From contig CM074512.1 of assembly GCA_037379345.1 (NCBI GenBank), forward strand, positions 46,376,001 through 46,440,000: 64,000 nucleotides of DNA, in the 5' to 3' direction. A model generated the notes under the pieces. It did not search any database and was not told the origin of the DNA. It saw only the letters and a list, made by a program, of their open reading frames with translations. The stretch is from Perna viridis (Eukaryota). Below are positions 2,331 through 50,649 of the stretch, one piece after another (the stretch's first letter is position 1; the number at the start of each line of letters is the position of its first letter). A program made the position numbers and the translations under genes.

Positions 2331-2652
2331 TCTGACCGAGAACATATAAAAGGGCCATTATTAAAACACCCATTTCCTAATACATTTATTAACCAACTAG
2401 ACAGAGAAAACATTATATATTATTCTATTGTCTTCATTGTTGTTTCATTAGTATGAAAAGTGTTTTAATGTTAATGTGAGTGTTTTGTTACAATAACTTA
2501 TTTACAGCTGTTGCATAAAATTTAGGTGTCTCCGCATACTGCACCATATCATCATTATTCTACAAAATAATCAAGACAAAGCTGCCATCATCATGTATAT
2601 TGTTAACTTATGAATATAACATTAACGCATATGTGAATACAAAAAAAATTAA

Positions 2653-5035: not shown

Positions 5036-7664
5036 GGAATTCAGGATGTGCTCTTGGATGAGGAAATGTATAAATAAAGATAGAAAAGGAGGTCATTTCT
5101 TGACCGACTCGCAAAGGAGATGGACGCAGTCGGACAGTAAATTGACAAGATAGTCCCCTGTCGTGGGTTTCATTTAGAAGAGGTCATCAGTCGTGATGCC
5201 ATACACGTGCAATTGACGAGAGAATGTGCACAATGCAAACCAAAGAATGAACTGACAAAAGAATATAAGGCCCCCAACAGACCTCGTGATAAATCAGCTG
5301 GAAGAAAGGAAAAAAAACGACCAGAAAACAGATGTGACGCCTATAAATGGAACAGCTTAAAGAGAATTCCAGACCAAAAATCCATCAGATGTATTAAGAA
5401 CTTAAACATGTGACACAACGTCAGGATATTAAATACAAGTGGAAACCAGAGCAAAGCACCGTGCAGAAGTCCTGGCATAAGAAACAGCGACCTTAATAAT
5501 TCAAGAAAGTTACAAAATTCGACTAGATGAATTATATTGATCTACGGTCCAACCTTATATAATGAGAGGATATATAATCCGAAATAGCATGAGCTATATG
5601 GGATATACAATGAAAACCAAGTCCATAGACCAGAAGTCGTGTTACCGGGGAAAAAAAGGAAGTGAAGATCAAATTGAGATCACTTAGTGGAAAATACAGC
5701 CTTGGTGCAAACAATACTCAGACAGCAAGAAGTTTCATATGAAGACCAAAAAATGTTCGCGGAAACATAAGAAGATCGGATCGTGAAAAGTGTTACTAAA
5801 TGGGAAACTAAGACCGGTAATGAAGAACGGGTTATGGAACCGACCCTGACGCAGAACCCGGATTTAATTATAAAAAAAAAACAGACGAGTTCCCAACGAA
5901 TGAAACAATTAATATGAATTGCAAATTAAATATAGAAGAAAAAAATCTTGTTGTGTAATAAAACTATACTAAAGAAAGACCTTACAAAAAAGGGGTAGCT
6001 CAAAACCGATAACACATATTAAAACCGTTAAGAACCGTTAGCGATAGCATATGAAACATAAAAAACTTTCACAAGCGTTTACTTAATAGAGCCTCATAAC
6101 ACGTTCAAATTAAGTTTGAGTGTAATTGACTTACAAACGTCGAGAATACTACAGTAGTAAAATGACAAAAATTCTTATAACAAACAAGCGATTATACAAG
6201 GCTGGCTCAAATTTAAAGAGAAAAAATGGGGAGCGTAGGAAACAAAGTTTAACCACGAATAAAAATATGGGGAGAAAAACAATATCCGTAAGTCAATGGT
6301 TTGCCCAATAGACCCCCATAACACAGGTTAAATCAAGTACACTGAAAGTATAATTGAAAAAAAGACATCGGTTTACCCGATAGAGCCCCCATATAAAATG
6401 AAAAGTTATAGTGCGTCTGTAAACATTTCATAGGTGATGAAATAGTCAACTATTTAAATTTTATTTGAATAAAAGTAAAAGGCAATACACCATTCAAAGG
6501 CTCTTAATGTTCCGACGGTAAACATCAATATTGCATGAAAAGAGTTTAAAACTACAATTGTCAGTATAACCTTTAGACGTAATTGAGGATAAAGACCCAA
6601 ATAACAACATTAATCAAATAATTCAATTATTCAATTATTCAATTACTTAATTATTCAAACTGAATTATAGAAAAGATATTAAATATAATTAAAAAAAAAA
6701 TTAAAACAACGATAAAAATTAATTAATTAACTATGAACAAATTGGTTTCATGATGCCAATGGATACTTCATAACGATCCATGAGTTCATGATGACGACCG
6801 TAAATGCCTACTTCCTACTAACGCAATGTTTTGAAAACTAATGATCAATGACTGTCTTCAGAACTTAACATGTCTGGTCTTTGTCCCTGGCACAACATGT
6901 TATAATTTCCTTACAACTGTAATGTATCCATAAAGCACAATTAAAAGCGGTTAAAAGTTTTAAACATCTGTCTAATCCGTGAGACATCTACTTTAGTTTT
7001 TAAATTGTATTACACAATCAATTTAAGGTTATCACACAAAGAAAATTAAATAAAACAAAAATAATTAAACAACACCAAAAAAAATTGATAAAAAATCAAA
7101 CATTCGAGTTGCGTTTATAACATAAATGTATTTATAAAGTACAATACATTAAAAAAAACCCGAAAGATGGACATCTGCTGTACACCGTGAAAACATCTAT
7201 TCAAAGTGAATTACCCAATCAATTTGACATTATTACATAATGACAATGAAATTACAAATTGATAATTTATGAAAATAATTAAAAACAATTACAGATAATG
7301 AAATATATAAATATAAAAAGCAATACAAAGAAAGAAAGATAACTCTAGTCATAATACACCCCTTCTTTTATACTTATCTGTTTATAGAACGCCATACTAT
7401 TAAATAACACTAATTCGGACACTTAATAGGGGTACCTACGGGGATCGTTACCGTCCTCCTGACCTTCAAGATCCCCTTCCTAGATCAAAGGGTCTTCATG
7501 ATCCCCTTTCTTGATCATGGGTCCTCCATCTTAGCCCACTTCCGGTCACTCAAGATCCACTTCCAGTCCCGTCCCCTCCCGGTCCATTCTGGTCCACGGC
7601 CACCGGATCTGACGTCATTCGCATGCATACTGGGGCTAATCCCCTTAATCCCCCGAAAACTACT
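4470..7664 (+). mobile_element. Maverick/Polinton-derived segment with putative terminus, right arm of foldback unit 1
   Basis: Contains the ATPase and is directly homologous to 18140-20955. It ends in a GC-rich block with cacttccgg/gacgtca motifs and ACTACT (7659-7664), the complement of the AGTAGT Polinton end. Confidence 0.7.
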
Positions 7665-10033: not shown

Positions 10034-12247
10034 GGTACTCTTTCTACAACTGCTACGCCACTGTCACCAGAACAGGATTTCAGCAATTTACCGGACCCTC
10101 TAGCTCAATTGAATGCATAAACAAATGCCTCGAAGTTAACACAATGTATGTATACAGCGGGACGGTGATAACAGGAAATCCTGTAAGTTCCTAAAAGGTT
10201 TTGCGTACTTATCCTTTGGTGTTATTTTATTCGGTTATGAATATGCCACTTTTTCCAGCATAAAAAAATAAATCATCTGTAAATTACACTGAACATGTCA
10301 TCGCTCTAAATCAAAAGCTATCCTCCATCGTATTATACAGTTGCATCTGCAAAAATCATTAAAAAACTCTTAAAGTGTTTCAATCAAATATGAACGGACG
10401 TGTGGATAGTGGTTTGTCATTAAATGGTCATCAAAAGATGCACATAACAAAAACCATCTTCCAGTAAATAATATTAACAGAATGAACATAATATATTTTT
10501 TCACATTTTCAGCCACTTTTTACATGCCATTGTTCGTTTGTAATGGATCTACCGGACGAAAGTATATTGCCAATAACAGATTGTGGGAGTAATCCATGTC
10601 CTCAAGTTACCTCAGATATATGTGGTGACATTGATAAAATGGCAGTATACTTAATTGGTAAGTGGAAATAAACATTTTTTGATCGCAAGACTTGTTATTA
10701 ATTTGCTGTACTAGTTCATAAATGGAAATGGTTTCGTTGAACTTGAAGCGGAACAAGTGTTCTGTCTGGTTAATTGGTTGTCTTACAGTTAAGATAAATC
10801 ATGTTATGTATAATCTGATTTGGTACTGTGGCGTCATTGTCGATTGTTGCACAGTCTAGGATACGAATAATATCGAACGACGCCTTGGCTATGAAAAAAA
10901 TTTTCATCAATTCGGACTAGAACTCACTGAAAACAATATGGGTAATTTTTCTATCTTTTTATTTACATGTTAGATGGACTCGCTTGCTTTTTTGGCACTG
11001 TTTCGATCAAGTTATTTCACACACAAAATAAGAGAAAAACAAAAAACAATTAATAAAGAATGCAATTGTATTACTTTTAATTAAGTAATTACCGTAAATT
11101 GGTTAGTATTCATACTGTTGTAATATGTTTAATTATAATCAGTAGGTTGTAGTGGAAACAGTTCGTATCTTCTTGATAATAATGTATATTTATAAATTAA
11201 CATACAATTTCGTAAGCACTTAAAAAAATAAAAGTATAGTTAAAGTTGTTCCACTGATCATATAGGACTGAATTTATGTCGAAAGTTTGTTTAATAAAAC
11301 CGTTGTTTTGATCTCTTCAAATCTATGTTCATTAATTTTAATATGGTGATGTACCACCGGTCTCCATCCGTACAGCTACTTCACAAAGTATGACAACACC
11401 TGCAGTGCCACAGATAACTACAAATAGTTCACAAAGCACGACTACAGCTGTTGTGCAACAGATAACTACAACTGGTTCACAAAGCATGACTGCAGCTATT
11501 GTGCCACAGATAACTACAACTGGTTCACAAAGCATGACTGCAGCTATTGTGCCACAGATAACTACAACTGGTTCACAAAGCATGACTGCAGCTGTTGTGC
11601 CACAGATAACTACAACTGGTTCACAAACCTCAACCTCAGATGATTCGGTTACTATGACCATAACTGATTCAAGTGTGACCACAACAAGCTCATCAAATGT
11701 ACCTTACGCTGATATGGCTCTGACTGATTCGTCGATAATTAACGAGATTTATACATCTTCTGAATTCATTAGTGATTCTCGAAATCTTTCACTGACTTCA
11801 CTAGTAAAATCTATTGTAACGGAAAATTTGCCATTTATTGAAACAACATCAGAGGAATTATCGACCACAGATTCCAGTCTTAAAAATGATTATGCTTTCA
11901 CTACTGATATGTTAAACTTCGTAAGTTCTTCAACAAACTGTGAGTGCCCTTGTTCAATCGTAAAACATAAATGGGACTTCCTCCGAAATCTGTCCTTAAC
12001 TAAGGACAAGCTCAGACTTTTCTTAAAGGACTATCTTAATGAATTACAGAATGGAATAGCAATTAATAAGAAGCAAACATCATTCTACATTTACACTAAA
12101 ATATCAATGCGGGATGATCGAGTATCTGCGATGGCGACCGGGTGTTTTGGTATTGTTGTCGTCAGTATTCCAGTTGTTCTTATAGTTTGTAGTGATATTC
12201 TAAAGTGTTTGATGTGGAAATCAAGAAAAAAATCTAATCTAGGTTGA
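10034..12247 (+). CDS. Spliced WSC-domain, Thr-rich mucin-like single-pass membrane protein (exons ~10034-10164, 10513-10657, 11376-12247; 5' end uncertain)
   Basis: Phase-compatible GT-AG exons give GYSFYNCY..ECINKC..YVYSGT|PLFTCHCS..DCGSNPCPQVTSDICGDIDKMAVY (WSC 8-Cys pattern ending CG..VY). This is followed by 16-aa Thr repeats, CECPC, a SMRDDRVSA juxtamembrane motif, TM helix FGIVVVSIPVVLIVC and a basic tail. The start may be MKIYLW (9988) or an upstream exon. Confidence 0.75.
11381..11627 (+). repeat. 48-bp coding tandem repeat (~5 units, TAAIVPQITTTGSQSM)
   Basis: Seen directly in DNA and protein. Confidence 0.9.
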
Positions 12248-13578: not shown

Positions 13579-15849
13579 TTACTGGTAATTTCAATAGCCC
13601 ATGTATTGATTTTTAACCGTTTTTTTTTATTGTGCTTTATGAATACATTACAGGTGTAAGGACGTGTTGTGCAATGTTTATCTCTCAGACTTTAATTTTT
13701 ATCATTGTTTTAATTATTTTTCTTTAATTATTTTTAATATTTTTTTGTATTTAGTTAATACAACGTTAATAACTTTTGAATTGTGTATTGCCCTTCATTT
13801 CAGATTTTTATTGTCGACCATTTCATCACCTATTACGGACACACTCAACCTTTTCATTGATTATATCCGTGTTGTGGAGCTCTATCGAGCAAACCGATTT
13901 CTTTTTCATATTTTCAATGTTTACATGTCGCGTGTACTTGATTTGACCCGTTATGGGGTTGTATTTGGTAAACCATTGATTTGTTGATTTTTTTTCTCTC
14001 CATATTTTCATTCGTAGTTTGTATCCTACGCCTTTTTTTTGTTTAAGTTTGAGACTTGTGCGCTCGTTTAATGTTTTTCTTTTGTTATTATAAGGAAATT
14101 GAACTTTTTACTGCTATAATATTTTCGATATTTGCATGTCGCGTACGCCCTTTGAACGTGTTATGAGGCTCTATCGGGTAAACCGATTTCTTTTTCATAC
14201 TTTCAATGTTTACATATCGCGTGTACTAGATTTGACCCGTTATTGGGGTAAACCATTGACCTACGGATTTCTATTTTTCTCTCCATATTATGGCATATTT
14301 TCATTCGTGGTTTGTTTCCTTCGCCTATTTTTTGTTTAAGTATTGTATGATAGGTTTTTATAAGAAGATTGAACTTTTTACTGCTGTAGTATGTTTTCAA
14401 GTTACTTACATGCAAACTTTGACCCGTGATATGAGGCTCTGATAGTAAATAAGTGTTTCATGCTGTCGTTAACGGTTTTGAGCTACCCTTTTTGTAAGGA
14501 GGTCTTTCTTAAGTATAGTTTTATTACACAACAAGATTTTTTTCCTTAAATATGTTATTTACAATTCATATTCATTGTTCCATTCGTCGGAGTGTCGTCT
14601 GTTTTTCAAACATAAAGTGTTCTTCTTCCCCTTCAAATAACACTTCACGATCCGATCTTCTTGTGATTCTGCTTTGCTATGAGTAGTCTTGCCGTCCGAG
14701 TATAGTTGGCGTCTAGGCTGTTTTTCCACTCTATTTAATCTTCACTTCCTTTTGTTCCTCGATTTACATGACTTCTGGTCTTTGAACTAGGTTTTCATTG
14801 TACATCCCATATAGCTCCTCCTTTTTTTGATGAACTATCCTCTGTAACTTTATTGATTTATTAAGGTCATCGATTCTTATACAAGGATGCACGATACTCC
14901 GCTCTGGTTTCCACTCGTATTTGATATTCTGACGTTGTACGTTTTACGTTCTTAATACATCTTAATTACTATCGTTGTTCCGAAATCCTCTCTATGCACT
15001 TCCATAAATAGGTGTCCCATCTGTTTTTGGTCGACGTTTTTTCTGTCATCCAGTTGGTCTACCACGAGGTCTTTTTGGGCTTCACTTTCTTTTGAGTTCA
15101 TTCTTTGGTTTACAGTTTGCACATTCTTTTGTCCATTGCACGTGTACAGCATCACGACTGGTGACTTCTTCTAAGTGAATTCCTCAACAGGTGGAACTAC
15201 CTTGTAAATATTTATTGCTCCGGGTGCGTCCATCTCCTTCGCGGGTCATTCACGACGTGAACCAGTATTGTTTTCCATTTCCTTTTATAGTCATCAGCGG
15301 TCGACTGTCGGGTACATAAAAAAGTTTCCATCTGGTGGTTTTTTTGGGTTGCAATTCTTGAGTTTCATTCGGTATCTGGATTTCGTGTTTTGAGCGCATT
15401 GGTTGTATACGGGTCTTAGAGTAGCCCGTTCATCAAAGCATCTTGGTGTATTTCTGTCGTCAAAGCATCTTAGTTTTACACAGTCATCAAAATATCGTTG
15501 TCCTATAAACCAGGTTGCATGGGTCCTATCTACTTGCATCTGCTGGTGCTCGACTGTAGGAGTAATGTAGCTGCTGCTACTGCTGCTCGAATAAGGGGGT
15601 GGGGGTATTCCAGCTGCTGCTGCTCGTAATTGGGGAGGGGTATTTCTGCTGCTGCTTTTCACATATGGGGATATTTCTGCTGCTGGTGGTCGTATTCGGG
15701 GTCATTCTCCCTGCTACTCCTATCTGCTGTTGCTCGAATATGAGCGTATGAGCGTATTCTAGTTGTTGCTGGCTGCATCCGGGGTCATTCGTCCTGATGC
15801 ATTCGTCTGCTGCAAACGGTCAGTTTGCTCGCTGGGTTCGTTTTTGTTG
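13579..15849 (-). mobile_element. Polinton-derived segment, left arm of foldback unit 2
   Basis: Reverse complement of 17663-20508 along its length; homologous to the unit-1 arms. Confidence 0.85.
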
Positions 15850-16359
15850 TGTTTACTTTTCAAGTTAAAATCGGAAGGTCAAGATTTAGTTTTTTTTCGT
15901 AAGTTTATTTCATGTTGTTTTCTCCTAAGTAACTTGACGTCTGGTACTTTAAGTGGGGTATATATATTTTGTTTTTGTTATTTTTCATAAAGTTAGGGCT
16001 TAGATCAATCTTCTCTATATTTAATTTTTATGATACTATATTACGCGCTTCATTGAACTTCAATTTCAGATCAAATCCGTACTGTTGAAATCCTCCTTAC
16101 CATAAAACTTAATCTTTTTTTTTATTAGCATTCATGTAGTTGTCCGCTTCTTCATCCTTTCCTTGCGTCTAACACTTGTTATTGTTCGTTACAAAACTTT
16201 AATCTGACTCAAACTATAGCTTTACCTCCTCATATTACAACTATTTTGATATTGATCTTTTCTAAACGTAAACCATAACTTAACCAACGAATTAACTCAA
16301 CGAAGCCTCAACCCATTCCAAGATACTAATTCTATTTAGGAGTCTAGTCTTATCCTTTG

Positions 16360-17655
16360 ACCCTAACACTAACCCTAACAACTAACCCTACCTATAACCA
16401 CTAACCCTAGCACTAACTCAACCATAACCCTGGACAAACATCAACATCTGAGCCAAACCTTAAACATAACCCTAAGCCTAACCCAACACTTAACCATAGG
16501 CTTAACCCTTGCCATAGATTTGATAATATATTTAAAGGTTGAATCTAACAACTTTCTTGATACTAGACCTGAAACTCTAACCCTAACCATAACCCTAAAC
16601 CATCCCCTACTGACCTAAGCACTATACATAACACTAGGCGTAACCCTATACTTAACCATACACTTAACCCTAACCCTTACCAGTAACCCTAACCCCTAAC
16701 CCTTACCTGAACTTAACCATAACCCTGGACAAACATCAACATCTGACCCACACCTTAAATATAACCCTAAGCCTAACCCAACAGTTAACCATAGACTTAG
16801 CTCTTGCCATAGACTTGATACTTTATCTAAAGTTTGAGTCTAACAACTTTCTTGACACTAGACCTTATCTGAAACTCTAACCCTACACCTAACCCTAAGC
16901 CATCCCCTACTGACTTTAACTCTACACTAGGCGTAACCCTGTACTTAACCATACACTTAACCCTAACCCTTACCAGTAACCCTAACCCCTAACCCTTACC
17001 TGAACTTAACCATAACCCTGGACAAACATCAACATCTGACCCACACCTTAAATATAACCCTAAGCCTAACCCAACAGTTAACCATAGACTTAGCTCTTGC
17101 CATAGACTTGATACTTTATCTAAAGTTTGAGTCTAACAACTTTCTTGACACTAGACCTTATCTGAAACTCTAACCCTACACCTAACCCTAAGCCATCCCC
17201 TACTGACTTTAACTCTACACTAGGCGTAACCCTGTACTTAACCATACACTTAACCATTACCCAAACCCTTACACAACCCTAACACAACCCTAATCACTAG
17301 CCCTAATCCGAACTTAACCATAACCCTAAACAAACATCAACATCTGACCCCAACCATAACAAAATACCCTAAGTTTAACCCAACACATAACCATAGGCTT
17401 AACTCTTGCCATAGACTTGATCCTATATCTAACGGTTGAATCTAACAATTTTCTTGACACTAGACCTTATTTGAAACTCTAACCCTATACCTAACCCTAA
17501 GCCAACCCCTACTGACCTTACCTCTATACCTAACACTAGGCGTAACCGTATACTTAACGATGCACTTGACCCTTACCCTAACCCTAACACAACCCAAATC
17601 ACTAACCCTAACCCTAATTCGAACTTAAACATAACCCTAGACAAACATCAACATC
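16360..17655. repeat. Telomere-like (TAACCC-rich) satellite, ~293-311-bp units x~4.3
   Basis: Anchor ac(t/c)aaccataaccct..acaaacatcaacatct at ~16416, 16711, 17004, 17312 and 17623. Units are built from degenerate ctaacc/taaccc hexamers; two adjacent 293-bp units are near-identical. Confidence 0.9.
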
Positions 17656-17662
17656 TTACCCC

Positions 17663-20600
17663 CAACAAAACGAACCCAGCGAGCAACACTGACCGTTTGC
17701 AGCAGACGAATGCAGCAGAAAGATTGACCCTGGATACAGCAGCCAGCAACAACTAGAATACGCCCATACTCGAGCAACAGCAGATAGAAGCAGCAGGGAG
17801 GATGACCCCGAATACGACCACCAGCAGCAGAAATACCCCTCCCCAATTACGAGCAGCAGCAGCTGGAATAACCCCACTCCCTTATTCGGGCAGCAGTAGC
17901 AGCAGCTACATTACTCGGGAAGTCGAGCACCAGCAGTTACAAGTAGATAGGACCCATGCAACCTGGTTTATCGGACATCGATATTTTGATGACTGTGCAA
18001 AACCAAGACGTTTGATGAACGGGCTACTCCAAGACCCGTATACAACCAATGCGCTCAAAGCACGAAACCCTGATTCCGAATGAAACTCAAGAATTGCAAT
18101 CCAAAAACCCAGCAGATGGAAACTTTTATATGTACCCGATAGTCGACCGCTGAATGCAGATGACTATAAAAAAAATGGAAAAGAATACTGGTTCTCTTCG
18201 TGAATGACCCGCGAAGGAGATGGACGCACCCGGAGCAATAAATATTTACAAGGTAGTCCATGTAGAGGAATTCACTTAGAACAAGTCACCAGTCGTGATG
18301 CCGTACACGTGCAATGAACAAAAGAATGAACTGACAAAAGAAAGTGAAGCCCTGGTAGACCAACTGGAGGAAAGATGTTTGTTGTTTGTTTGTTGGGGTT
18401 TAACGTCGGAGTAGCAATATTTCAGCTATATTCAGACGATGAACATGAAATTGATGATAAAATGAACATGAATGATGATGATGAAATGAAAAAGGGATGG
18501 GACACAAGGATAATGGGGTCGACAAATTTTGATTGCCACTGGAAATAGGGAGAGGTGGGTAGGGTCGGGCAATTTAGCCTCCTGTGGCAGAGCCCTATGG
18601 TTCCTACTCCGGGAGAATACCACAATAGGGATCTTTAACGTGCGAGGAACGTGACATCTTTCCCAACACGGTGCACCACTATGGTTTGCGGTCAGGTTTT
18701 CCGTATTATAGCCTGACAACCCCAGCATATAACACGCCAGGGATACCCCATTCCAGTTGCTTTGTGGGCAGAGCGCCCTAGCCCCCGGCTAGTGTTCTGA
18801 GCACTATTTAGTCGCCTTTTATGACAAGCTTAGCGCTGCTGCAGGCCTATTCTTTTAACACCCGGACCTGCACGGGGCACTGGAGGAAAGAAAAAAGTCG
18901 ACCAAAAACAGATGTGACACCTATAAATGGAACTGTATAGAGAGGATTTTGGAACTAAGATAGTGCGGATGTATTATGAACGTAAGACGTACAACGTCAG
19001 AATATCAAATACAAGTGGAATCCAGAGCGGAGTATCGTGCATCCTTGTATTAGAATCGATGACCTTAATAAATCACGAAAGTTACAAAAGTTCAACTAGA
19101 TTAATCATTTTGATCTACGTTGCCAGAACCTTATATCGTGAGAGGATAATTCATCAAAAAAAGGAGGAGCTATATGGGATGTAAAATGAAAACCTTGTTC
19201 AAAGACCAGAAGTCATATAAACCGAGGAACAAAAGGAAGTGAAGATTAAATAGAGTGGGAAAAACAGCCTTGATGCCAAAGATACTCGGGCGACAAAACA
19301 ACTCATAGTAAAGCAGAATCATAAGACGATCCCATCGTGAAGTGTTATTTGAAGGGGAAGAAGAACACTTTCAGGAACAGACCATTGAACAGGACCCGGT
19401 TTCGAAAAACAGACGACACTCCGAAGAATGGAATAATGAATATGAATTGTAAATAAAATATAAAAGTAAAAAAATCTTGTTGTGTAATAAAACTATACTA
19501 AAGAAAGACCTCCTTACCAAAAGGGTAGCTCAAAACCGACAACACTATTAAAACCGTTAGCAACAGCATGAAAAACATATTTACAATCAGAGCCTCATAA
19601 CACGGGCCAAGGTTTGCGAGTAAGTAACTTGAAAACATGATATAGAAGTAAAAACTTCAACCTCCTTATAAAAAACCTATCATACAATTCTTCAGCAAAA
19701 AAGGGGCGAAGGAAACAAACCACGAATGAAAATATGCCATTATATGGAGAGAAAAATAAAACTCCATAGGTCACTGGTTTACGCCCATAACGGGTCAAAT
19801 CAAGTACACGCGACATGTAAACATTGAAAGTATTAAAAAAAATCGGTTTCCCAATAGAGCCTCATAATACGTTCAAAAGTTGTACGTGACATGCAAATAT
19901 CGAAACTATTATAGCAGTAAAAAGTTCAATCTTCTTACAATAACAAAAGAAAAACATTAAACGAGCACACAAGTCTCAACCTTTAACAAAAAAGGGCGTA
20001 GGAAACAAACTACGAATGAAAATATGGAGAGAGAAAAAAAATCAACAAATCAATGGTTTACCTAATACAACCCCATAACGGGTCAAATCAAGTACACGCG
20101 ACATGTAAACATTGAAAATATCAAAAAGAAATCGGTTTACCCAAAAACAGCCCCATAACACGGATATAATCAATGAAAAGGTTGAGTGTCCATAATAGGT
20201 GATGAAATGGTCGACAGTAAAAATCTGAAACGAAGGGCAATACACCATTCAAAAGTTATTAACGTTCCAAATGTAAACATCAACTGTAAACCTTACAATT
20301 ATCAGGATAATCATTAGTGGTTAGTCAAAATTTCAAACTGAATACAAAAAATATTAAACATAATTAAACAAAAATTATTAAAACAATGATAAAAATTTAA
20401 GTCTGAGAGATAAATATTGCACAACACGTCCTTACACCTGTAATGTATTCATAAAGCACAATAAAAACGGTTAAAAATCAATACATGGGTTATTGAAATC
20501 ACCAGTAAAATGGGAAGTTTTAAACATCTGTCTTATCCGTGAGACATCTATTCAAAATACACAATCAATTGAACACAAAGAAAATCAAATCAAAATTTAA

Positions 20601-38639: not shown

Positions 38640-41600
38640 GGGGTCCTCTGATGAAGGATTTTATATTGATACTCAGGTTTGTGGAAAAGATGTTTCAATG
38701 TTAGTAGACACGGGTGCAAGTGTAACAATTTTGAATCAGAAATTTTTAGTAACTTAAATCCTTCATCCAGGCCTTCTATTTCTCCTGTAAAAATTAAAAT
38801 GATAACCGCAACTGGTGAACTATCTCCTTTTGTTGGTCAGATTGATGTTCATATTAGTTTGGGAGGAAATTTGATAAAACATAATTTATTAATTGCTGAT
38901 ATTCCCACCGAGGGCATTCTTGGAATGGATTTTTTCACTAAAACTGGGTGTGATGTACTTTTGAGCAAAAGTTGTATTCGTTATCATGGTCAAGAGTTAC
39001 CTTGTTTTAAATACAAAAACCATACTGAAGCTTCATGTTGCAGAATTTGTATTCACGAAAAAGTAGTTTTGCCTCCATCAAGTGAAACTATAGTTTCTGG
39101 TAAAGCCGTTGACCCTTTAGTTAAAGGAAAAACGGCCCTTGTAGACCCAGTTGATAAATATATAACAAAACATGGATTGCTTATAGCAAGAGCTGTAGTT
39201 CAACCAAAGTCTGGTCTAATACCAATGAAAATTTTAAATGTCACTGACCAAGAACATGTCTTGCAGAAAAACACATTGGCAGCCATTTTGGAACCTATTG
39301 ATACTAAAACAGTTCAGGAATATCAAACAGTAAATGCAGTTAATGTGCTGAAAATTCTATGAATATTTTGTCTGAACATGTTCAAACTGTATTTGATAAA
39401 AATAATAAGGAGTTGTCAGAGGATGAAAAATTACAGTTTAAAAATATTTTAGACAAATATCAGAATTCTTTTTCAAAATCAGTTACTGATATTGGTCGTT
39501 CAGAATTGATTGAACATACTATCAATACGGGACAAATTCCTCCAATACGACAACAGCCTCGACGGGTGCCTTAAGCTAAAATTCAAGAAGCAGATGCTGA
39601 AATCGAGAAAATGCCGCTCAAAATATTATAGAGCCTAGTATTAGTCCATGGTGCTCACCAGTTGTAATTTTACGCAAGAAGGATGGGTCTATCAGTTTTG
39701 CTATTGATTATAGGATGTTGAATCACTATACAGTTAAAGATTCACACCCTTTACCCCGGATAGATGATACTTTAGATGCTTTATCTGGCTCGAAATAATA
39801 TTCAACAATGGATCTCAAAAGTGGTTACCACCAGGTAGCTATTACACCAGAAGATAGACCAAAAACAGCTTTCTCTTACCCTGGTAGCGGTTTGTAGCAA
39901 TTCACAGTTTTAGCTTTTGGGTTATGTAATGCCCCTGCAATCTTTGAAAGATTAATGCTGAAGATTTTAAGCGGGCTCGCTTGGAAAGTCTGCTTAGTAT
40001 ACTTGGATGACATAATTGTTTTCTCCAAAACTTTTGATGAGCATCTTAAGAACTTAACAGAGGTCCTTGATCGATTAAAAGGGTCAAATTTAAAATTAAA
40101 TCCTAAAAAATGCCATTTCTTTCAAAGATGTGTTACCTTTCTGGGTCATGTTGTTAGTGAAAATGGGGTGGCTACAGATCCGGAAAAGACAAAAGCTGTT
40201 TCAGAGTGGCCGGTTCCTAAGAATGTTAAAGAAATCAGATCATTTTTAGGCCTTCGCTCTTATTATCGCAAATATATTTTTCATTTTGCAGATACTGCGA
40301 GAGAGTTGCACAAATTAACAGAGAAAAACCAACCGTTTGTTTGGTCTGATAAATGTCAAATAGCAATTAATACTCTAAAGCAGAGATTAATAAATGCACT
40401 CATTTTAGCATACCCTAAAAATGAGGGTTTATTCATAATTGATACAGATGCTAGCAATACATGTCTAGGATCTGTACTCTCCCAAATCATTTAGCAGAGT
40501 AAAAAGAAAATATTGTGTTACTCGCAGAGAATTATTGGCGGTGGTAATTGCTATAAAACACTTTCATCATTATTTATATGGTCGACACTGTATTGTTCGC
40601 AGTGATCATGGTGCTTTACGCTGGTTATTAAATTTTAAAAATCCAGAAGGTCAGATAGCTCGCTGGTTTGAAATATTATCAACGTATGACTTTGAAATTG
40701 AGCACCGAGCAGGTCGCTCTCACTCTAATGCACCCCGTGCAGGTCCGGGTGTTAAAAGAATAGGCCTGCAGCAGCGCCAAGCTTGTCGTAAAAGGCGACT
40801 AAATAGTGCTCAGAACCCTAGCCGGGGGCTAGGGCGTTCTGCCCACAGAGCAACTGGGATGTGTGCCCCAGGCGGTGGAATGGGGTATCCCTGGCGTGTT
40901 ACATGCTGGGGTTGTCAGGCTATAAGACGGAAAACCTGACCGCAAACCATAGTGGTGCACCGTGTTGGGAAAAATGCCACGTTCCTCGCAGGTTAAAGAA
41001 CCCTACTGTGGTATTCTCCCGGAGTAGGAACCACAGTGCTCCGCCACAGGAGGTTAAATTGCCCGACCATACCCACCTCTCCCAATTTCCAGTGGCAATC
41101 AAAATTTGTCGACCCCATTATCCTTGTGTCCCATCCCTTTTTTATTTCATCATCATTTCATGTTCATTTTATCATCAATTTCATGTTCATCGTCTGAATA
41201 TAGCTGAAATATTGCTGCTCGGACGTTAAACCCCAACAAAAAAAAACCAGACACTCTAATGCTGACGCTTTATCACGACGTCCCTGCAATGACAGTTGTA
41301 GTCATTGTAATCGTTATGAACAAAAATGTGAAAACCAACAGTGTGAAACAGCTGATGTCAATATTTTTAAAGAGATTAAGGGGAATAACTCAGAAAAATT
41401 ATCAAAAAGTTTCTCAAAAGAAGAAATAGTTGCTGTTAAAATAACTACCCGATCTGGAAAGATTTTGGGGGAATCTTCTTCTTTTAGTAATCAGGAATCT
41501 TTAGATTTGCAAAGCTTTCCTGCAACTTCTGAAGATGATCATGATTTAATGAAAAGTCAAATGATTTTGAAATCAGTTTATTGTTATTATGGCTGGAGAA

Positions 41601-42840
41601 GGGAGAAAACCCCCCCTGGAAAATTGTATCTCCTTATAGTGCTGCCATAAAATATTATTGGACTCTCTGGGATTCTTTGTGTATAAAGAAAGGAATTTTA
41701 TATTATAGATGGGAGACCATCAATGGATGTAGAAGGAAGTTTTTAATTGTTTTGTCCAGCAATTTGAGAAATTTGGTTTTAACACATTTACATAATAGCA
41801 TTACTGGGGGACATTTAGGGGTTAAGAAAACCTTATCTAAAGTTAGGGAAAGATATTCCTGGTATAAACAGCGAGATGATGTTGAAAATTGGTGTAGGCA
41901 ATGTGATATATGTGCTTCGAAGAAACCTCCAATTAAGAAGCTGAAAGGACCTCTACAGCAATATAATGTTGGGGCTCCCCTCGAACGAATTGCAGTTGAT
42001 ATTTTGGGTCCCCTAACAAGGTCAAACAAAGGGAATAAATATTTGCTGGTTGTGGGTGATTATTTTTCAATATGGGCTGATGCAATTCCCATTAGGGATC
42101 AAGAAGCAAAAACAGTTGTAAATAAACTAGTTGAGAGGGTCATAACTATATTAGGAGTCCCAATGGAGATTCATTCTGATCAGGGAACAAATTTTGAATC
42201 CCAAGTCTTTAACGAAATGTGTAAACTTTTAGGTTTGCATAAAACCAGAACCACGGGACTAAGACCTCAAAGTGATGGCATGGTTGAAAAAGCAAATTCT
42301 ACAATTTTAAATATGTTGGCAAGTTTTGTTGCTGAGAACCAAAAGGATTGGGATTAATATATATATCTATTAATGATGGCGTATAGAGCTTCTGCTCATG
42401 AGATCACCAAAGTCTCCCCTTATGAAATGATGTTTGGTCGCAATATGAATTTAACTATTGATTTGATTATAGGACACCCTGAAAATAATTATATGTATCA
42501 GGAATTACATAGTGAATATGTTTATGAGCTTTCTCAGAAAATAGAGAAAATTTGCCAGAGAACATATAATGCTTTCAAGCAATAACATGAAGCGTTTTTT
42601 ATGACAGGAGTATAAATTTCAAAAGATTTAATGCCGGAGAATCTGTTTGGCTGTATAGTCCAGCTCGAACAAGAGGGTTGAATCCTAAATTGCAGAGACC
42701 GTGGCAAGGACCTTTTGAAGTCTTGGAGAGAATAAATGATGTTATTTATAAAAAAAGAAAAGGCCCCAGGTCCAAAATTAAAATTGTTCATCATGATCGA
42801 TTAAAATCATATGTTGGGGAACCATCCAGGGTTGGAACAT
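38640..42840 (+). pseudogene. pol: pol (protease-RT-RNaseH-integrase), disrupted by stops, frameshifts, a small RNaseH deletion and a retroposon insertion
   Basis: LVDTGAS (~38701), SPWCSPVV, DLKSGYHQV, FGLCNAPA, YLDD (~40000), DTDAS, HHCC zinc motif GGHLG..CDIC, AVDILG, HSDQG, GMVE, and GPY-like WQGPF. Confidence 0.93.
40732..41251 (+). mobile_element. ~510-bp retroposon, copy C, inserted in Gypsy pol
   Basis: 11-bp TSD cactctaatgc (40721-40731 / 41252-41262). Removing it restores HRAGRSHSNA-DALSRRPC. Confidence 0.95.
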
Positions 42841-42980
42841 AGAGTTTGCAGTATTTATAAAATAAAAAAAATTACAATGTATTGAGATTGCATAGCAGCA
42901 TTAACCCGTTAAAAAATAATAATAATAACAATAACAATAAGTCATGCCTAAATTATATGGTTTGATAATTGTTCTTGTAG

Positions 42981-44179
42981 GTAACTTTATATAGGTGTGG
43001 GCTATGTCTCAACCATGACTTTGACAGACCATTTAAGGTGGAGCGACACATGGATGAGCAGCACTCTAATTTTGGATACGTGTGTCCAGAATGTAGCAGG
43101 CTTTTCCTATGAAAAAACTCTCAACACAAAAACTGCAAGCATGGAGAAGCTGGGGGAAAAGATCTAAAGTTTGTTCGTAGGGAAAATTTCAAGTATGGGG
43201 AGGAGGAGAAACAGAAATATAAAAAATTTAGGAAGGATAGTAGGGAACAAATACAAACAATACACCCTATTCCTCCTTCTAAATCCCTATCTATAGAAAA
43301 GAAGGAAGGAGCAGAGAAAGAGAAACATCTTAATCTTATTAGTACAAAACAATAAACTGAAAAGTCAAAGAAAACACAAGAAAATAGGAAGAAAAAAACT
43401 ACAAAAAGGAAACTCATACTGGAAGACCAAGAAGAACCAGCGAAGAGGTCACCCTTATCAGATAATATATTCAATAAGAAAAGGACACTCATCATAAAAC
43501 CAGTCTCCCAAGTTAGGCATGACAATATTTTTGCACCGCTCCTTACCCCTCCTGCAGTGCCAATATCTCCACTTAAATCTACAACTTCTGCTCATGATTC
43601 CCCAATTACTATAATATCACCAATGTGTAATCAATCTGAATGTACAACTTCCATTGCCACACCAGCTCGCAGCTCTAGCTTACCACTCAAAGACAATTCT
43701 CCTAGTAAAACTAACAGCCCAATACAGATGCAATTTCTCTATATGCTCCAGAATACACAGATTCTACCAGCACCAAGGAGGTAGACTACATTCCTACACC
43801 AAAATATATGTTGAAGTTGAAAACTATGGCGGATTGCCAAAAATCTAGAATCATTTTAAATATTGGTGGATCCAGGTTTGAAACCTGTGCAGAGACTCTT
43901 ATGAAGGATCCTTCCTCAATTCTATCATACAAGGTACTGCCAGAATCACCATTCAAGCCATACAACGTGGACAATATCTACGCCTACTTCATAGACAGAG
44001 ACCCCCGTCAGTTTATCCACGTTCTCAACTACCTTCGGAGGAACTGTGACAGTGATATTTCTACACTACCTACAAGTATTCCAGCCCTTAGAGAACTCCA
44101 GCAAGAGTGCAGTTTCTACAACTTAACCAACCTACACAATTTAGTGGAGACCAGAATTTCAGACATTTTGTCTCGATGA
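42981..44179 (+). pseudogene. Extra ORF of the Gypsy element: C2H2-type zinc fingers, Lys-rich and Ser/Pro-rich linker, KCTD/T1-type BTB domain (2 stops, 1 frameshift)
   Basis: After acceptor-like ttcttgtag: YRCGLCLNHDFDRPFKVERHMDEQH..YVCPECSRLFL*KNSQHKNC.., continuing in the same frame to ~43720. The frame then shifts into DAISLYAPEY..MLKLK..IILNIGGSRFETCAETL..DPSSIL..YFIDRDPRQFIHVLNYLR..LP..LRELQQECSFYNL (BTB_2 signature). Confidence 0.85.
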
Positions 44180-44974
44180 TATTGTGAATTATTATACTTT
44201 CTATTTACAATAAGCATTGGTTGTTGTTCCCGCTTCCCATGATATTGTAAAGAAGTATCCCCGTGTATCCCTTGGGTGGGTATTTTTCATATTTTATTGT
44301 TAATATTGTAGCCTATAATAATGTAGGTTATAGCTTTAACCTAAGAAGGTTTGAGCTTTGAAAGTACCTTGGTAACTGTGATTATTCTTTACTGTTATTG
44401 ATTCCAATAGTGTTGCAGTTGTTTGCTGATATGAAACATGTATTCACACATGTATTTATGCTGAATCATTTGGCTATTGTGAATTGAATGAAGGCTGAAG
44501 TGATATGTTTTCTTCGTTTTTTTTCTTGTGTGTGTGATGTTGTTAGGTGCACCAGGATTATTGCTGGTAGTGTAATTGCTTGTATAATATTAGGTACATG
44601 ATATATATATGTATATTTCTGGTGCCAAGGACTTTATGCACTAGGAATGAAAGAGACGTTTCTAATTAGTGATATCAGTATTGATGAAAAACATTGTTTA
44701 AAATATTTACAATGTACGTGTCATTGGTAACGTATGATGATTTTACTTGGTGCATCTGATGGCATTGCAAAAAAAAATTTCAGTTGTTTTATTTTTGGGA
44801 ATAGAAGTGTTTTGGTAAATGATGGTGTAATTGTGTATTAATTTTGTTTGTATTGTTATATATTTTGGAAGTGTAAACTTGATAGCAGTGGCTCATTACT
44901 AAATATTAGTTTGAGAATCTGTTGTCAAATAATAGAATATCTGCATAGATTTGAGGACAAATCCTTGTTTTCAT

Positions 44975-44988
44975 AAGGGAGGGGGTAG
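44975..44988 (+). promoter_or_regulatory. Polypurine tract
   Basis: aagggagggggtag immediately before the 3' LTR. Confidence 0.9.
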
Positions 44989-45937
44989 TGTTACGGCTGG
45001 TGAATTTCAGTATCGGACATATTATTGTCAATTATCGGTTTCGTGTAGTATTCTCATTCACCAGTATTTTTACATACAGATATTCGGTCATTTTTTGCAA
45101 TGCTTGGTGCTTGGACTGAAGAATTGTTTTACCTGTTATAAATAATATTTGTAATTATCATTTTATCGTTGTCCCGAACACACTTGACTGTATTATTGTT
45201 AATTTATCTCCGTGTTCGGAGTTGCACATCGAATTCGGCGCCATTCCGTGTGATGTGTAATTGTGTGTAGTTATTTACTGTTGTTTGTGTACTACGTCAT
45301 GTCCTAGTTACTATGTAAATAAATAGCGTAGGCTTACACCGAGCTGTCATCTGTTCCTTTGATCTTTTGACAGACAGTTGTAGAAGCCAATTGGCTTACT
45401 GCGTAAATTATCGCCCAAAGTCAAATTAGTTTTGGCCAGAAACTGGTAATTTCTAATTATTTGTGAACTTTTATGCTGCTATTACTTATTATCTACAGAC
45501 TGCTCCGACGTCTGCTGGGGCTTACTTTTCGAGGAAATTACTCCAAGTAAACTTTTGGCAACACCAACTAAGTGTTTGGTGCTGCACCAAGTGAATTACT
45601 CGGTGCACAAATTATTACCTTAATCCTTATAGTGTAAGAGATATTGAGTTTTTATTCATTAACTTGGTCACCTTGTGAAAAGTGTTTGATGCTGCACCAA
45701 ACTGCCCCAAGTGCAGTTTGCTCCAAGTATACCAAGTATATGTGTGTCAAAGATTTCTGTGATTAGGATTCACCGTATCATTTTATTAATTTATCATATT
45801 GCTGATACCTATGTATGCAGAGTTTAAGATTGCTAATTATATAAATTATTGAACTTCCATCCAATCTTTATTATTATTTCCTACACCAGGGACCCACAAA
45901 AATTATAGTCAACTCCAAAAATAGTTGGGGCGTTACA
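44989..45937 (+). repeat. 3' LTR (949 bp)
   Basis: Direct repeat of the 5' LTR, followed by TSD atat. Confidence 0.95.
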
Positions 45938-47130
45938 ATATTGATGGTGAAAAATTAAAAATAAAAGCTAAGTTTTTGCTTTATGTTTTGTTTTTGTTTC
46001 TTTTTTTTCCATTTCAAATAATAATCTGTTATTAAAAAAAAATGATCATATATCTTACATTTTCGGGCCAAAAAAATTTAACAGTACTAGTTTTAAAATG
46101 CTAGTATAGCTATCAAATTCGTTACTTATGGCGTCACATGACTACCACAGAACATTTTTGACATAAAAAAGAATGTTTTAGTCTGGTGGCGAGGTGGGTG
46201 TTTTTCTTTTCTCAGTTATAGTTACTGTTATAATTGGTTCTTGAGCGAGTTACCTTCTACAATTCTGCTCAAACAATTTCAATATTTTAGTGAAAGTTAC
46301 ATAACTTTGTGTGAATTTCTTTTGTTTTATCGAATCTGGTTACCCCATTCTCGTTTTTAAAATTAAAGTACTACTCTGTCTAGGAATCAAGCAAAATGTA
46401 CATGAGGTGTGGCAATGAAAAAAAAAATTAACACAGAGATTAAGTTGCATTATCCAAGTATTTATACCTTATAACCTCCAGAAATAATCATCATAGTGTT
46501 TGTAAAGTTTGCCTTTGGCCAAATTTAGTTGAAATGCATGCAAGAAAAATGGCGGGAAAATTTTCTCGCACTTTTTCCGTATGTAACCAGTAAAAATATC
46601 TACGTCACAGATGATTCAGAATAAATTTAAAATTTAAATGGCTTTTTTTTTTCGTTTGTCAACTAGATGTCTTGAACATATTTTAGGCAGGAAGGACCAA
46701 AATTTAATTGAGAAAATGATGTGCCACCCATTGCTTGATTCTTACAGAGAATTATACTTAAAAAGCCACCAATCTATTACATTTATTTTTTTTTAAAGTT
46801 TTTTTTTTCTTTTTTCGATAACAATACAACATTTTTTGCACAAACGATTTAAATAATGTGTTAGATATAGATTTAGGAAATGTCTTTTGTTACAATTGAC
46901 GTAGTATATGTTGATAACAATTGACGTATTGTTACCTTTATCGACATGTAATAAGTAGTTTGACATTGTAAAAAAAATACGTGTTTATGAATTACAAACT
47001 CTTAAAGTAATTGAACTTCAAGTATATAACTGTACTCAGTGACTGTACTATAATATTTTGTCATACGCGTGGTCTATCTCGGAGAAGACATTTGAACTAT
47101 ACACCATTTGAATATACAAATTGGCATTTA

Positions 47131-47562
47131 AGCGGGGGCTAGGCGCTCTGCCCACAGAGCAACTGGGATGTGTGCACCAGGTGGTGGAATGGGGTACCCC
47201 TGGCGTGTTACATGCTGGGGTTGTCAGGCTATAATACGGAAAACCTGACCGCAAACCACAGTGGTGCACCGTGTTGGGAAAGATGTCACGTTCTTCGCAC
47301 GTTAAAGAACCCTACTGTGGTATTCTCCCGGAGTAGGAACCACAGGGCTCCGCCACAGGAGGTTAAATTGCCCGACCCTACCCACCTCTCCCTATTTCCA
47401 GTGGCAATCAAAATTTGTCGACCCCATTGTCCTTGTGTCCCATCCCTTTTTCATTTCATCATTGTTTCATGTTCATTTTATCATCAATTTCATGTTCATC
47501 GTCTGAATATAGCTGAAATATTGCTGCTCGGACGTTAAACTCCAACAAACAAACAAACAAAC
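47131..47562 (+). mobile_element. ~510-bp retroposon, copy D (5'-truncated)
   Basis: Starts at gcgggggctagg and has a (CAAA)n tail; no clear TSD. Confidence 0.9.
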
Positions 47563-47665: not shown

Positions 47666-49443
47666 GGTGTCATCCAAATTGTCCCACATTTTAAAAATTA
47701 CAGGTAAAAATGTGTGGGACAAGTGGGAATTGTGTACATGTTAATTAGTTGTTTTCACACCCTTATTACAATAGGTAATTATGTATAGTCTTTTTCTGAA
47801 TATTATCTAATTGTATTATGTAGTATCTATAGATAAATTGTTCCTGAAGTATATTTATTGCTATAAAATATGTAACTTATTATAAAATAAAATAGATCTT
47901 TTCCAATCCTTTGTACTGATGCCTGGTAACAGAGGGAGATATTCCATGTGGATAGTTTGAATGCATTTTGAACTGTGCTTTTTGATGATGCTTTTTCCAT
48001 ATTAATATTTTTCTCCTTGGGTGATAATTGAAACAACAATAATTTTTTCTAATAGTTATTAATTGCTTTATGATATATTTCAATATTTATGAAAATAACA
48101 AGATTCACAAAAATTAACAGAGAATGATAATAATGCACTATTACAGTATAAAACAAACAGTAAAATGTTCACACACTTCTACCCAAGGTGAATAAGCTGA
48201 GATGCTGCATCAGCATAATTGATAACTGTGATTTCCCCGTTGCGTAGTCTTTGTTTGAGTAGTTGCAGTCTGTTGTCTATATTTCTGTATTTGCGGCGCT
48301 TTCTTGTTGGTAGTCCCTCTGCTCTAATTTGGATGATATTTACTTCATTGGCTGACTGGACCTGCATGAGATGAGTAATGAATGTGTAGATGTTCGGATG
48401 TGCATGCTGTATTTGTTTCTTAATCTTGGAATGCCATCCCTCTAAGTGGTTGGTTGTTCTGGATTCATCATGGTCAAAGTGGTTCCAGATTTGCTGATCA
48501 GACTGTACCCACTGCGTTGTTACATAGTCTGTAAATGGTATTGTGTTCATGTTAATATCGGTATGTTCCAAGTCAGTCAAAGCATTAAACCACACATCTT
48601 CTACACTCTGCAGAGGAACTAAGGGTAGCACTGCTGCTCTGCGTACCAGTGTCTTGATGACTTCATTTTCTTTGTACTGTGTTTGTAGTCCTGATTGCTG
48701 TGTCTTCCTCCAAATACACTGCGTGAAATGAAAAAAAAAACACCCTCGAATTGCAATGTTAGGAAAGACAGTTGGTATGTACAATACTAAAAAACCTTCT
48801 GTAAACGTCTTCACTCTTGCCAGGGAGTAGCTCTGCTCTGTGGTTGTGTTGAATGTTGTAACCTACTGGTATGTTGTTTAAGGTTCTTATAGTAGCTGGG
48901 CATGTTCTGACAGCACATCGCCAGTAAACCCTTTCTTCACGTCGATTCTTTACCTGGAAACGGTAATTGTTGTGAACAAGACTTTGTCCACCTCTACTGT
49001 TCTCTATGAATTCTATGTTTAGCTGTGCATTAACCATTTTGACTTTGATTCAAGTTGACATTTTTACTTTCTATATATACCTCTTTTGAGATGTATTCAC
49101 ATTGATTTCAACAAGCTGAAGTGGCATGTTGCTCATAAGCAAGCCCACTTAGAAAGAAATTGATTAGCCAATTAATTAGGTCAGTTATTAAAAGTTATTA
49201 TATGACTGCTGGTTTAATTAGTTAAAATAATTAACTTCACTTTTTATTTTTATTATTATTATTATTATTTTTTAATTCCAATCAAAAATATGTATCTACA
49301 TGTATATGACTAGATGGTGATAGTGGAGTACTAGAAAAAGACTATAACTTTGTCAAAACACTAATTAATTATTTGTTGTTATAAGAATGTTGAACAACTG
49401 GGAATATAGTTTTTTTCAAATGTGGGACAAATGGGAATAAACC
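47666..49443 (-). mobile_element. Internally deleted MULE (Mutator-like) DNA transposon
   Basis: ~27-bp imperfect TIRs (ggtgtcatccaaattgtcccacattt / aaatgtgggacaaatgggaataaacc) and an 8-bp TSD ggttgttg. Confidence 0.85.
48179..49037 (-). pseudogene. FLYWCH-MULE transposase remnant
   Basis: FLYWCH (SRGGQSLVHNNYRF..YWRC..CPA..HNH) joined across a deletion to the C-terminal GCFFFHFTQCIWRK..RTTNHLEGWH. The first catalytic Asp residues are missing. Confidence 0.85.
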
Positions 49444-49622
49444 GGTTGTTGTCTAAAAACCTTTCTTCAAAACATATTTAAATCATAATAACTTGGAATT
49501 GATATTAATAAATATTCAAGTTTAATGTATAATAAATATGATCAAATGAATTAAAATAAAATAAAATCTTTGAAAAGATTTTATTAAAATATTTCAAATA
49601 CTTTTATTGTTTAAGTCATGTA

Positions 49623-50256
49623 TACTCGGCGTCACATAAATAACATACTGTTAAAATTTGAATGAAAATATTTTCTACGACTTTATTGACACCTACTGTC
49701 GTTTAAATTGTTTTAAATGACTTGCTCATTCCTTTAGCCAAACGGCTTCTCCCTAAACAAGTCGCTTATTAGCTTAAATCATGCGTAACAAATCCTTACG
49801 GGAAAATCCCATACTAATATCCGCCATGTTGGTTTCTACGGGACGATTTGTTAACAAACAAAGTTCGTAAGTTCCCGTCCAACTCCGGTGACAATCGTCT
49901 GCTTGATCAACTTCTCGGTATTGTACGTTGTTCGCGTAAAATAAATCCGGGATATCCGAAATAACGCCGAAATGCATTTTGGGTTCTTCGGTTTTTGGAC
50001 AAACCATTTAAACGTAAATAACATCTCCTTGCAACCCGATCACTGTAAACATGGCCGACTTTTTACAATGTAAATATTGGCACCGAGAATTAAAATCTGA
50101 CCGGAATTTAACGATTCAATGTTTAGGGAGAAGCCGTTTGGCTAAACGAATGAGCAAGTCATTTAAGACAATTTAAACGAAGGTAGGTGTCAATAAAGTC
50201 GTAGAAAATATTTTTATTCAAATTTTAACAGTATGTTATTTATGTGACGCGGAGTA
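49623..50256. mobile_element. MITE with ~135-bp TIRs and TA flanks (Tc1/mariner-like)
   Basis: ta|tactcggcgtcacataaataacatactg...ctccctaaaca is inverted at tgtttagggag...tatgtgacgcggagta|ta. Confidence 0.88.
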
Positions 50257-50649
50257 TAGTAGGTTTTCAAGCTGGATTGAAGTTTTCTGTTTTTTTCCCT
50301 TTTTTTTTTTTTTTTTTTTTGTTTTGTTTTATAAGATATTCTATAGCATCCATAGTGGTTAACTAGCGACCGTATAACGTACATGTTTTGTATATAGATG
50401 GACAATAAGATGTCTTCCTGATTGATGGCGTAGTTGCTAAAATAACAACAATAAACCGTGTATTCTAACAAATTAAGGAGATATTGTATTTTTCAGTAAT
50501 TGTGTTTACTAGACAGAACCTTGCTAATGAAACTATGAAACTTATGATTTTTTGCTAATTTTATAGAAATGAATTACAGCATTTATTGCATGGATGATAA
50601 TGAGTGACAATGTTAAACTTTTTTTCAGTAAAAAATATAAAATTACCAC

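Follow-up and report, generated by a model that had tools for sequence, protein, structure and literature searches.

Structure of the element and of its third reading frame

The window, a stretch of 64,000 nucleotides from Perna viridis, contained one decayed Ty3/Gypsy element of 9.6 kb on the forward strand, with two LTRs (TG...CA), a PBS, a polypurine tract (PPT), and a target-site duplication all present. The 5' LTR (804 bp, 36319–37122) and the 3' LTR (949 bp, 44989–45937), which is about 147 bp longer, differed at 25 of 801 aligned columns (K2P 0.032). They were flanked by the duplicated 4-mer ATAT (36315–36318 and 45938–45941), and ATAT was found on both sides in seven of the eight copies with readable ends. 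The PBS (37124–37141) was complementary to the 3' end of host tRNA-Leu(CAG); its pattern had 31 matches in the P. viridis genome, and ARAGORN identified tRNA-Leu(CAG) at both loci scanned. A tandem array at G000:C8:24302963-24356679 carried 31 matches to the tRNA-Leu 3' end and is the likely source of the primer.

The internal region began with a gag-like ORF (37193–38632), which was recognized by its position and its conservation across copies and had no match in Pfam. It was followed by a broken pol (38670–40729) with a weak protease (Asp_protease_2, E 0.011), a reverse transcriptase (RVT_1, E 4.8e-21), and an RNase H (RT_RNaseH, E 4.6e-19), and by a broken integrase (41545–42842) with H2C2, rve, and C-terminal p58/SH3 domains; the domain order in Pfam, PR-RT-RH-IN, is that of Gypsy elements. 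A SINE-like high-copy short repeat with an 11-bp duplication was located inside pol (40733–41253, no strand assigned), and the PPT lay at 44975–44985. Clade placement was based on trees of rows from the P. viridis genome itself; the mollusc Gypsy clades named in the available text of PMC6238403 are C-clade, MolGy, and others.

A third reading frame (ORF3) was located after the integrase and before the PPT, within the LTR pair, and its coordinates agree with the placement given in the initial annotation. In this copy, ORF3 has no start codon. It opens behind a T-rich tract that ends in TAG (42961–42980), a predicted phase-0 splice acceptor, and this TAG (42978–42980) adjoins the first codon. 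The N-terminal domain (42981–43270) consists of a C2H2 finger (C-x2-C-x13-H-x4-H, 42996–43064), a C2HC finger (C-x2-C-x10-H-x2-C, 43083–43136), and a strand-helix-strand unit. The linker (43271–43799), in which an NLS-like Lys/Arg tract lies at 43386–43412, is a basic tract at first and then Ser/Pro/Thr-rich, and was predicted to be disordered in the model of a relative. The C-terminal part (43800–44179) comprises a pre-BTB helix and an unbroken KCTD/T1-type BTB domain that ends in TGA. The frame is interrupted by stops at 43110–43112 and 43353–43355 and by a frame change within 43715–43784, which are the two stops and one frameshift noted earlier, and the two fingers, the Lys-rich tract, the Ser/Pro linker, and the C-terminal BTB described in the initial annotation were all recovered. 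Pfam, which had been proposed as a check on both domains, bore out the BTB (BTB_2 at 43850–44137; E 8.7e-16, 58.5 bits, cut-off 21.4), whereas the finger by itself scored low (E 0.004–0.015). The finger is nevertheless far from a chance pattern, because a profile of this domain alone matched 308 clusters at E ≤ 0.001 (91 at E ≤ 1e-10) and the domain folded alone reached a pLDDT of 94.

A readthrough fusion of integrase and ORF3 was ruled out by the in-frame stops that lie between 42842 and 42981. An env glycoprotein was also rejected as the identity of ORF3: a transmembrane-like stretch was found in none of 30 long relatives, all of which had a maximum 19-residue hydropathy of at most 1.57, and the only Pfam domain was BTB_2.

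Distribution of ORF3 and selection on its domains

The BTB domain of the window, used as a query, matched 45 places in the P. viridis genome. The 37 loci fetched included 24 with Gypsy pol and/or the finger domain, 12 that were host KCTD/Kv-like, and one degenerate fragment; integrase identity to the window among the 24 Gypsy-associated loci was about 30–86%. No copy examined in this genome carried finger and BTB in one unbroken frame. The integrase tree (60 rows), a quick search in which 20 of the 23 ORF3 carriers had been picked because of ORF3, contained one branch (SH-aLRT 94) of 24 rows, 23 of them with ORF3, and none of the 36 rows outside this branch had it. The other 40 rows had been drawn by integrase alone from 150 matches in the genome, regardless of ORF3; among these, three of the four loci inside the clade carried ORF3, and none of the 36 outside did. 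ORF3 is hence not a one-off retrocopy, which the initial annotation had named as the outcome that would speak against its proposal, as it occurs in many families of the 37-locus survey and throughout nearly all of one integrase clade.

In a quick tree of BTB domains (105 rows; 18 of 123 matches were left out as near-copies or fragments), the TE BTBs all lay to one side of a single branch (SH-aLRT 90), host sampling being thin. The comparison with host KCTDs that had been suggested earlier therefore sets the TE domains apart from the host KCTDs sampled, with the reservation that four rows labelled "other" also fell on the TE side; three of these were mislabelled cluster-mates of P0104, and the fourth, P0009, is of unknown origin. 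The main family groupings of the BTB tree matched those of the integrase tree, and the window family grouped with the L003 and L007 families in both. Outside a Gypsy context, an unbroken frame of 559 aa at L014:6674-8350 (+) encoded a coiled-coil-like stretch and, at its C-terminus, a BTB_2; L014, together with L015 and L028, is a candidate relative of the BTB donor family.

Database searches recovered unbroken relatives of ORF3 of 250–960 aa, which included natural finger-linker-BTB proteins (P0004, P0073, P0074, P0076, P0077, and others). P0004, a protein of 413 aa from a cluster of 10, has a BTB that is 72% identical to that of the window. The finger profile listed 147 new proteins. After the exclusion of 21 multi-stretch finger arrays, every remaining protein of at least 200 aa, 55 in total, was scanned with Pfam. 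Among these listed matches, 27 ended in BTB_2, six were gene models joined to integrase/RT, one was a finger array, and 21 had no Pfam domain, some of the last group being visibly truncated; the BTB was C-terminal in all 27 BTB-positive matches. Finger and BTB thus share one natural frame in 27 of 55 database proteins tested, which answers the earlier concern that the two might never do so. The unbroken relatives were compared at the level of protein sequence. All named records were from molluscs, namely Mytilus trossulus, M. edulis, M. coruscus, M. galloprovincialis, Magallana angulata, Pecten maximus, and Gigantopelta aegis, the last being a gastropod; partial records came from Crassostrea virginica (BTB part only) and Mercenaria mercenaria (finger part only). 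The DNA around the unbroken relatives had no match in two metagenome scans, and atlas searches returned only generic C2H2 and BTB_2 clusters. Several relatives carried host-gene names, such as trichohyalin-like (P0106), SRRM2-like (P0108), DNA ligase 1-like (P0085), and SAFB2-like (P0198), and "BTB domain-containing protein" was a further name in use. Because databases name such relatives as host genes, counts of mollusc BTB/KCTD genes are inflated.

Pairwise codon counts in 27 pairs, in which finger and BTB were compared with integrase and RT, revealed purifying selection on both ORF3 domains between families. The values for both domains between families (pS 0.7–0.9 versus pN 0.27–0.43) were much like those of integrase and RT, and the neutral evolution that the initial annotation had held against its own proposal was not observed. 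Between sub-families, omega was 0.09 for the finger domain (56 codons; pN 0.09, pS 0.56) and 0.43 for the BTB in the window-L012 pair, and 0.12 for the fingers and 0.31 for the BTB in the L007-L016 pair. Within families, omega was scattered from 0.2 to 3.0; such scatter is expected from decay after insertion, and integrase and RT scattered likewise.

The finger-BTB ORF3 is real, conserved, and clade-defining, and there is little doubt that it is a conserved accessory gene. The BTB domain was likely taken from the host. The initial annotation is borne out in so far as this is a conserved accessory gene of the TE whose BTB is of host type, and which is seen across families, under selection, and in single-frame proteins.

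Among the loci of sister integrase clades without ORF3, 20 of 36 had C2H2-like motifs on the sense strand after the integrase, versus 4 of 36 in the antisense control. Fingers were combined with a coiled coil in some of these clades, e.g., L053 and L070 (weak Pfam), and a TatD_DNase was located in the ORF3 slot of L065, L074, L082, and L084 (G000 C12 and C15; Pfam E down to 1e-38). In these loci a finger-like motif and the TatD_DNase lay about 0.7–2.5 kb downstream of integrase, and the TatD_DNase was enclosed by a 221-bp direct-repeat pair (94–98% identical) in the three copies checked. Judging from these sequences, the lineage apparently retains a finger module at the env position while the partner of this module varies, and the coiled coil behind the fingers of sister clades suggests that the BTB is an interchangeable oligomerization module. 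The literature search found no paper combining TatD, gypsy, and retrotransposon.

The C2H2-like third ORFs of other sister clades (L051–L088) lie 0.25–2.8 kb downstream of integrase. They include fingers with a coiled coil (L053, L054, L066, L070, and L083), repeated finger pairs (L057, L060, L068, L076, and L080), and fingers with unknown C-terminal modules (L051, L061, and L077). A young multi-copy Gypsy family had a 226-aa ORF downstream of integrase (L087:2033-2710, +) that had no Pfam match and that, by eye, we presume to resemble an SGNH/GDSL hydrolase.

Predicted structure and expression of ORF3

AlphaFold2 (72-row alignment) predicted two confident domains (residues 1–100 and about 280–410, pLDDT about 90 or more) and a low-confidence linker. 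The BTB model matched KCTD1, 15, 13, 5, and 17 at E about 1e-6 with no clear winner, and it also matched the BTBs of large DNA viruses. With Pfam BTB_2 above the cut-off and a KCTD-like fold, the domain belongs to the KCTD/T1 class, and by analogy with that family it would form a homo-oligomer (tetramer or pentamer). Residues 1–53 of the finger domain aligned weakly with tandem DNA-binding C2H2 pairs (Z 3–4), and the best structural match was p06 of the archaeal virus AFV1 (Z 4.5). Fold searches with the finger domain gave no Foldseek match at E ≤ 0.001 (best E 0.63) and no Z ≥ 5, which does not show a new fold.

Of 130 homologues, 98 conformed to the pattern and were used for residue statistics of the fingers. 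In the helix of finger 1, position +6 was Arg in 77 and position -3 was Phe in 77 of the 98, Arg or Lys occupied +1 in 58, and positions -1, +2, and +3 were variable. Finger 2 was C2HC in 85 homologues, and the linker between the fingers (His to Cys) had 6 residues in 95. The inter-finger linker of canonical C2H2 arrays has 7 residues, and this difference, together with the C2HC form of finger 2, makes RNA or protein binding quite possible. In 30 long relatives, none of which had a transmembrane segment, the linker between finger domain and BTB ranged from about 10 to 700 residues, its first half being basic in 22 and its second half acidic in 26. A search for a repeated candidate binding motif in the LTRs and 3' non-coding DNA of four families gave top 8-mer counts of 3–4, equal to those of shuffles.

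At a distance of 5–7 codons upstream of the first Cys, an in-frame CAG or TAG occurred in 17 of the 22 copies scored in the P. viridis genome, versus 2 of 22 at a control offset; three further copies had no locatable CxxC and are outside the 22. The codon depends on the family, with TAG in some and CAG in others; that a stop codon can stand in for Gln at this site argues for a splice acceptor and against a coding constraint. Among 40 database proteins with at least eight upstream residues, 24 had Gln at -6 (background 4.5%), mostly after Phe or Leu, and several gene models joined integrase to the finger at the conserved YAG point. The conserved in-frame YAG at the start of ORF3 makes splicing in the manner of env likely, and translation of ORF3 from a spliced RNA is predicted with good confidence. 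A search for a splice donor found no conserved candidate in the 6 of 18 copies that had a recognizable PBS, and we therefore infer splicing from the acceptor side. Four presumed-RNA contig sets were compared with 36320–44985; no RNA junction at the acceptor was present among the joints listed, in a table dominated by the SINE-like repeat, and a few contigs crossed the acceptor unspliced.

Possible functions and relation to known systems

ORF3 probably oligomerizes and binds nucleic acid of its own element, either DNA or RNA. The best explanation, which is put forward tentatively from the sequences, is the DNA form, in which ORF3 would be an oligomeric nuclear regulator that acts on its own LTR and raises expression. 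The protein would be produced from a spliced subgenomic RNA, of which the acceptor alone has been located, and would enter the nucleus via the basic half of the linker. Finger 1 would then bind DNA, and a BTB ring would present several finger modules and so provide avidity. The target would be the element's own nucleic acid, most likely proviral LTR DNA, and activation or anti-silencing would depend on the Ser/Pro half of the linker, which is acidic. Among the options offered by the initial annotation, an LTR transactivator would fit best. A wider reading, which is speculative and rather unlikely in its full form, is that this mollusc Gypsy lineage encodes zinc-finger regulators with swappable effectors (BTB; TatD or coiled coil), the BTB form being a sequence-specific anti-silencing factor that would oligomerize on the LTR of its own element and would either recruit host BTB partners or sequester them. 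If true, such regulators would be a transposon-side mirror of the host KRAB/ZAD/BTB zinc-finger defence.

The fingers may instead act on RNA. The spliced ORF3 product would then bind its own unspliced RNA through the fingers, multimerize through the BTB, and license the export of full-length RNA in the manner of CERV or Rev. The strong conserved acceptor, at which full-length RNA must escape splicing, and the C2HC finger 2 with its non-canonical linker are consistent with this. A parallel is CERV of Cer1 in C. elegans, a Gypsy protein that is encoded in the env position, is translated from spliced RNA, bears a Cys finger, is predicted to form a ring of 5 or more subunits, and is required for the export of gRNA (PMC10309623). 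However, the residues of finger 1 follow the DNA-reading C2H2 helix pattern, the nearest finger structures are DNA-bound pairs (a weak match), and a non-systematic search identified no export signal or RNA element; this reading is considered less probable than the DNA form. It is improbable that ORF3 serves as an integration tether, with fingers that bind target DNA or chromatin and a BTB that bridges to the integrase complex: the frequent ATAT duplication does imply a target preference, but other Gypsy elements have a 4-bp AT-alternating preference from integrase alone, which could explain the one seen here, and ORF3 is separated from integrase by in-frame stops instead of being fused to it. 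A neutral passenger, whether a retrocopy captured only once or sequences juxtaposed by chance, has hardly any probability left. Every copy examined in the P. viridis genome was broken and omega varied widely within families, as such a passenger would have it, but decay within families was equal for integrase and RT, and the constraint between families, the clade-wide presence, and the unbroken relatives in several mollusc groups contradict it.

The initial annotation had favored a Cul3 adaptor or decoy. Under such a reading, the BTB would recruit Cul3 while the fingers or the linker hold the host silencing factor that is to be degraded, or the BTB would poison host KCTD oligomers. The KCTD-type fold, with the Cul3-binding KCTD5, 10, 13, and 17 among the close matches, the presence of a Cul3 gene in the host, and similar BTBs in large DNA viruses are compatible with this idea, and global similarity does not separate Cul3 binders from non-binders (PMC10856315). 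According to that study, KCTD-Cul3 contacts are made mostly via the α2-β3 loop, and non-binders are recognized by a loop that is long, structured or rigid, or that contains Pro (PMC10856315). The loop had at least two Pro in 27 of 35 TE domains versus 2 of 18 host domains, the host-type acidic turn (D/E-x-x-G/N) was present in none of the 35 TE domains versus 14 of the 18 host domains, and the model had a β-hairpin in this region; given the small host set, the loop motif is a descriptive contrast and not a validated predictor of Cul3 binding. The remodelled, Pro-rich loop without the acidic turn weakens the adaptor idea, as do the sister clades that have a coiled coil or TatD instead, and a Cul3 role is accordingly considered unlikely.

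Among known systems, CERV recalls ORF3, by description, in its env position in a Gypsy element and its Cys finger, and the splicing and ring formation predicted for ORF3 have counterparts in CERV, but it consists of domains H, M, and a G-protein mimic and, in the available text, is confined to Caenorhabditis, whereas ORF3 has C2H2/C2HC fingers and a KCTD BTB (PMC10309623). The ORF3s of LTR retrotransposons in bdelloid rotifers, which are also invertebrates, encode a GDSL esterase and a DEDDy exonuclease; here, too, domains of cellular origin have been captured into the env slot, and the ORF3s are typically spliced. In contrast to the ORF3 described here, they are enzymes without fingers, BTB is unmentioned in the accessible text, and their intragenomic evolution looked neutral rather than constrained between families (PMC5408684). 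The BTB of ORF3 shares Pfam family PF02214 and fold with the KCTD/T1 proteins KCTD1, 15, 13, 5, and 17, and the helix before its core loosely recalls the BTB extension of KCTD1 (PMC7618933, in part). The BTB of cellular KCTDs is N-terminal in the text available (PMC10856315), whereas that of ORF3 is C-terminal, TE-borne, joined to fingers, and remodelled in its loop. BTB-ZF (ZBTB) factors, including ZBTB11 with its integrase-like finger, also combine zinc fingers with a BTB oligomerization domain, but they are host genes with the BTB upstream of C-terminal finger arrays, as far as the available text describes them, whereas ORF3 has the reversed order and lies inside LTRs (PMC12062965). ORF3 further differs from ZBTB proteins in its BTB_2 class and in having only two atypical fingers, with the 6-residue linker (95 of 98) and a C2HC finger 2. 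We know of no domain that ORF3 shares with VANC of the Arabidopsis VANDAL elements. VANC is nevertheless a functional analogue of the best reading, LTR regulation by ORF3, as a TE-encoded accessory protein that acts selectively on its own family; it belongs to a DNA transposon and, in the text available, targets high-copy tandem motifs, whereas the LTRs of four ORF3 families had no such array (PMC6719617).

Non-env third ORFs are therefore already known (CERV; rotifer GDSL and DEDDy), and the finger-BTB form is a new variant. An orchid LTR element reportedly has a non-env ORF3 with an RNA-demethylase domain. No publication describing a Gypsy third ORF of the finger-BTB or TatD type emerged from the literature search; annotation may exist in Repbase, in subscription papers, or in the supplement of PMC12062965, which lay outside its scope. 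Complex retroviruses are characterized by regulatory accessory genes, which to our knowledge have rarely been described for LTR retrotransposons of animals. The clear published precedent is CERV, and ORF3, conserved across bivalves and a gastropod, would be a second, unrelated, phylum-wide candidate, composed of two recognizable and assayable modules. Together with the finger-TatD and finger-coiled-coil ORFs of the sister clades, it makes self-regulation or counter-silencing by animal retrotransposons testable.

The window also contained other repeats and frames. Five SINE-like copies of approximately 500 bp lie at about 18376–18878, 34296–34787, 40733–41253, 47048–47560, and 53948–54457, and this repeat was very abundant in the presumed-RNA contig sets. 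Long inverted-repeat structures (TIR or foldback-like) were located at 1035–5657, 13624–20467, and 49621–50258, the second of which encloses a 293-bp tandem array (16336–17674) and a SINE-like copy. Four frames had no Pfam match: a 520-aa open frame (29783–31342, +), a Ser/Thr-rich frame with a 48-bp repeat (11342–12244, +), a retroelement-like fragment (59963–60427, +), and a 227-aa frame (48182–48862, -) that by eye has the look of a MULE-type transposase fragment.
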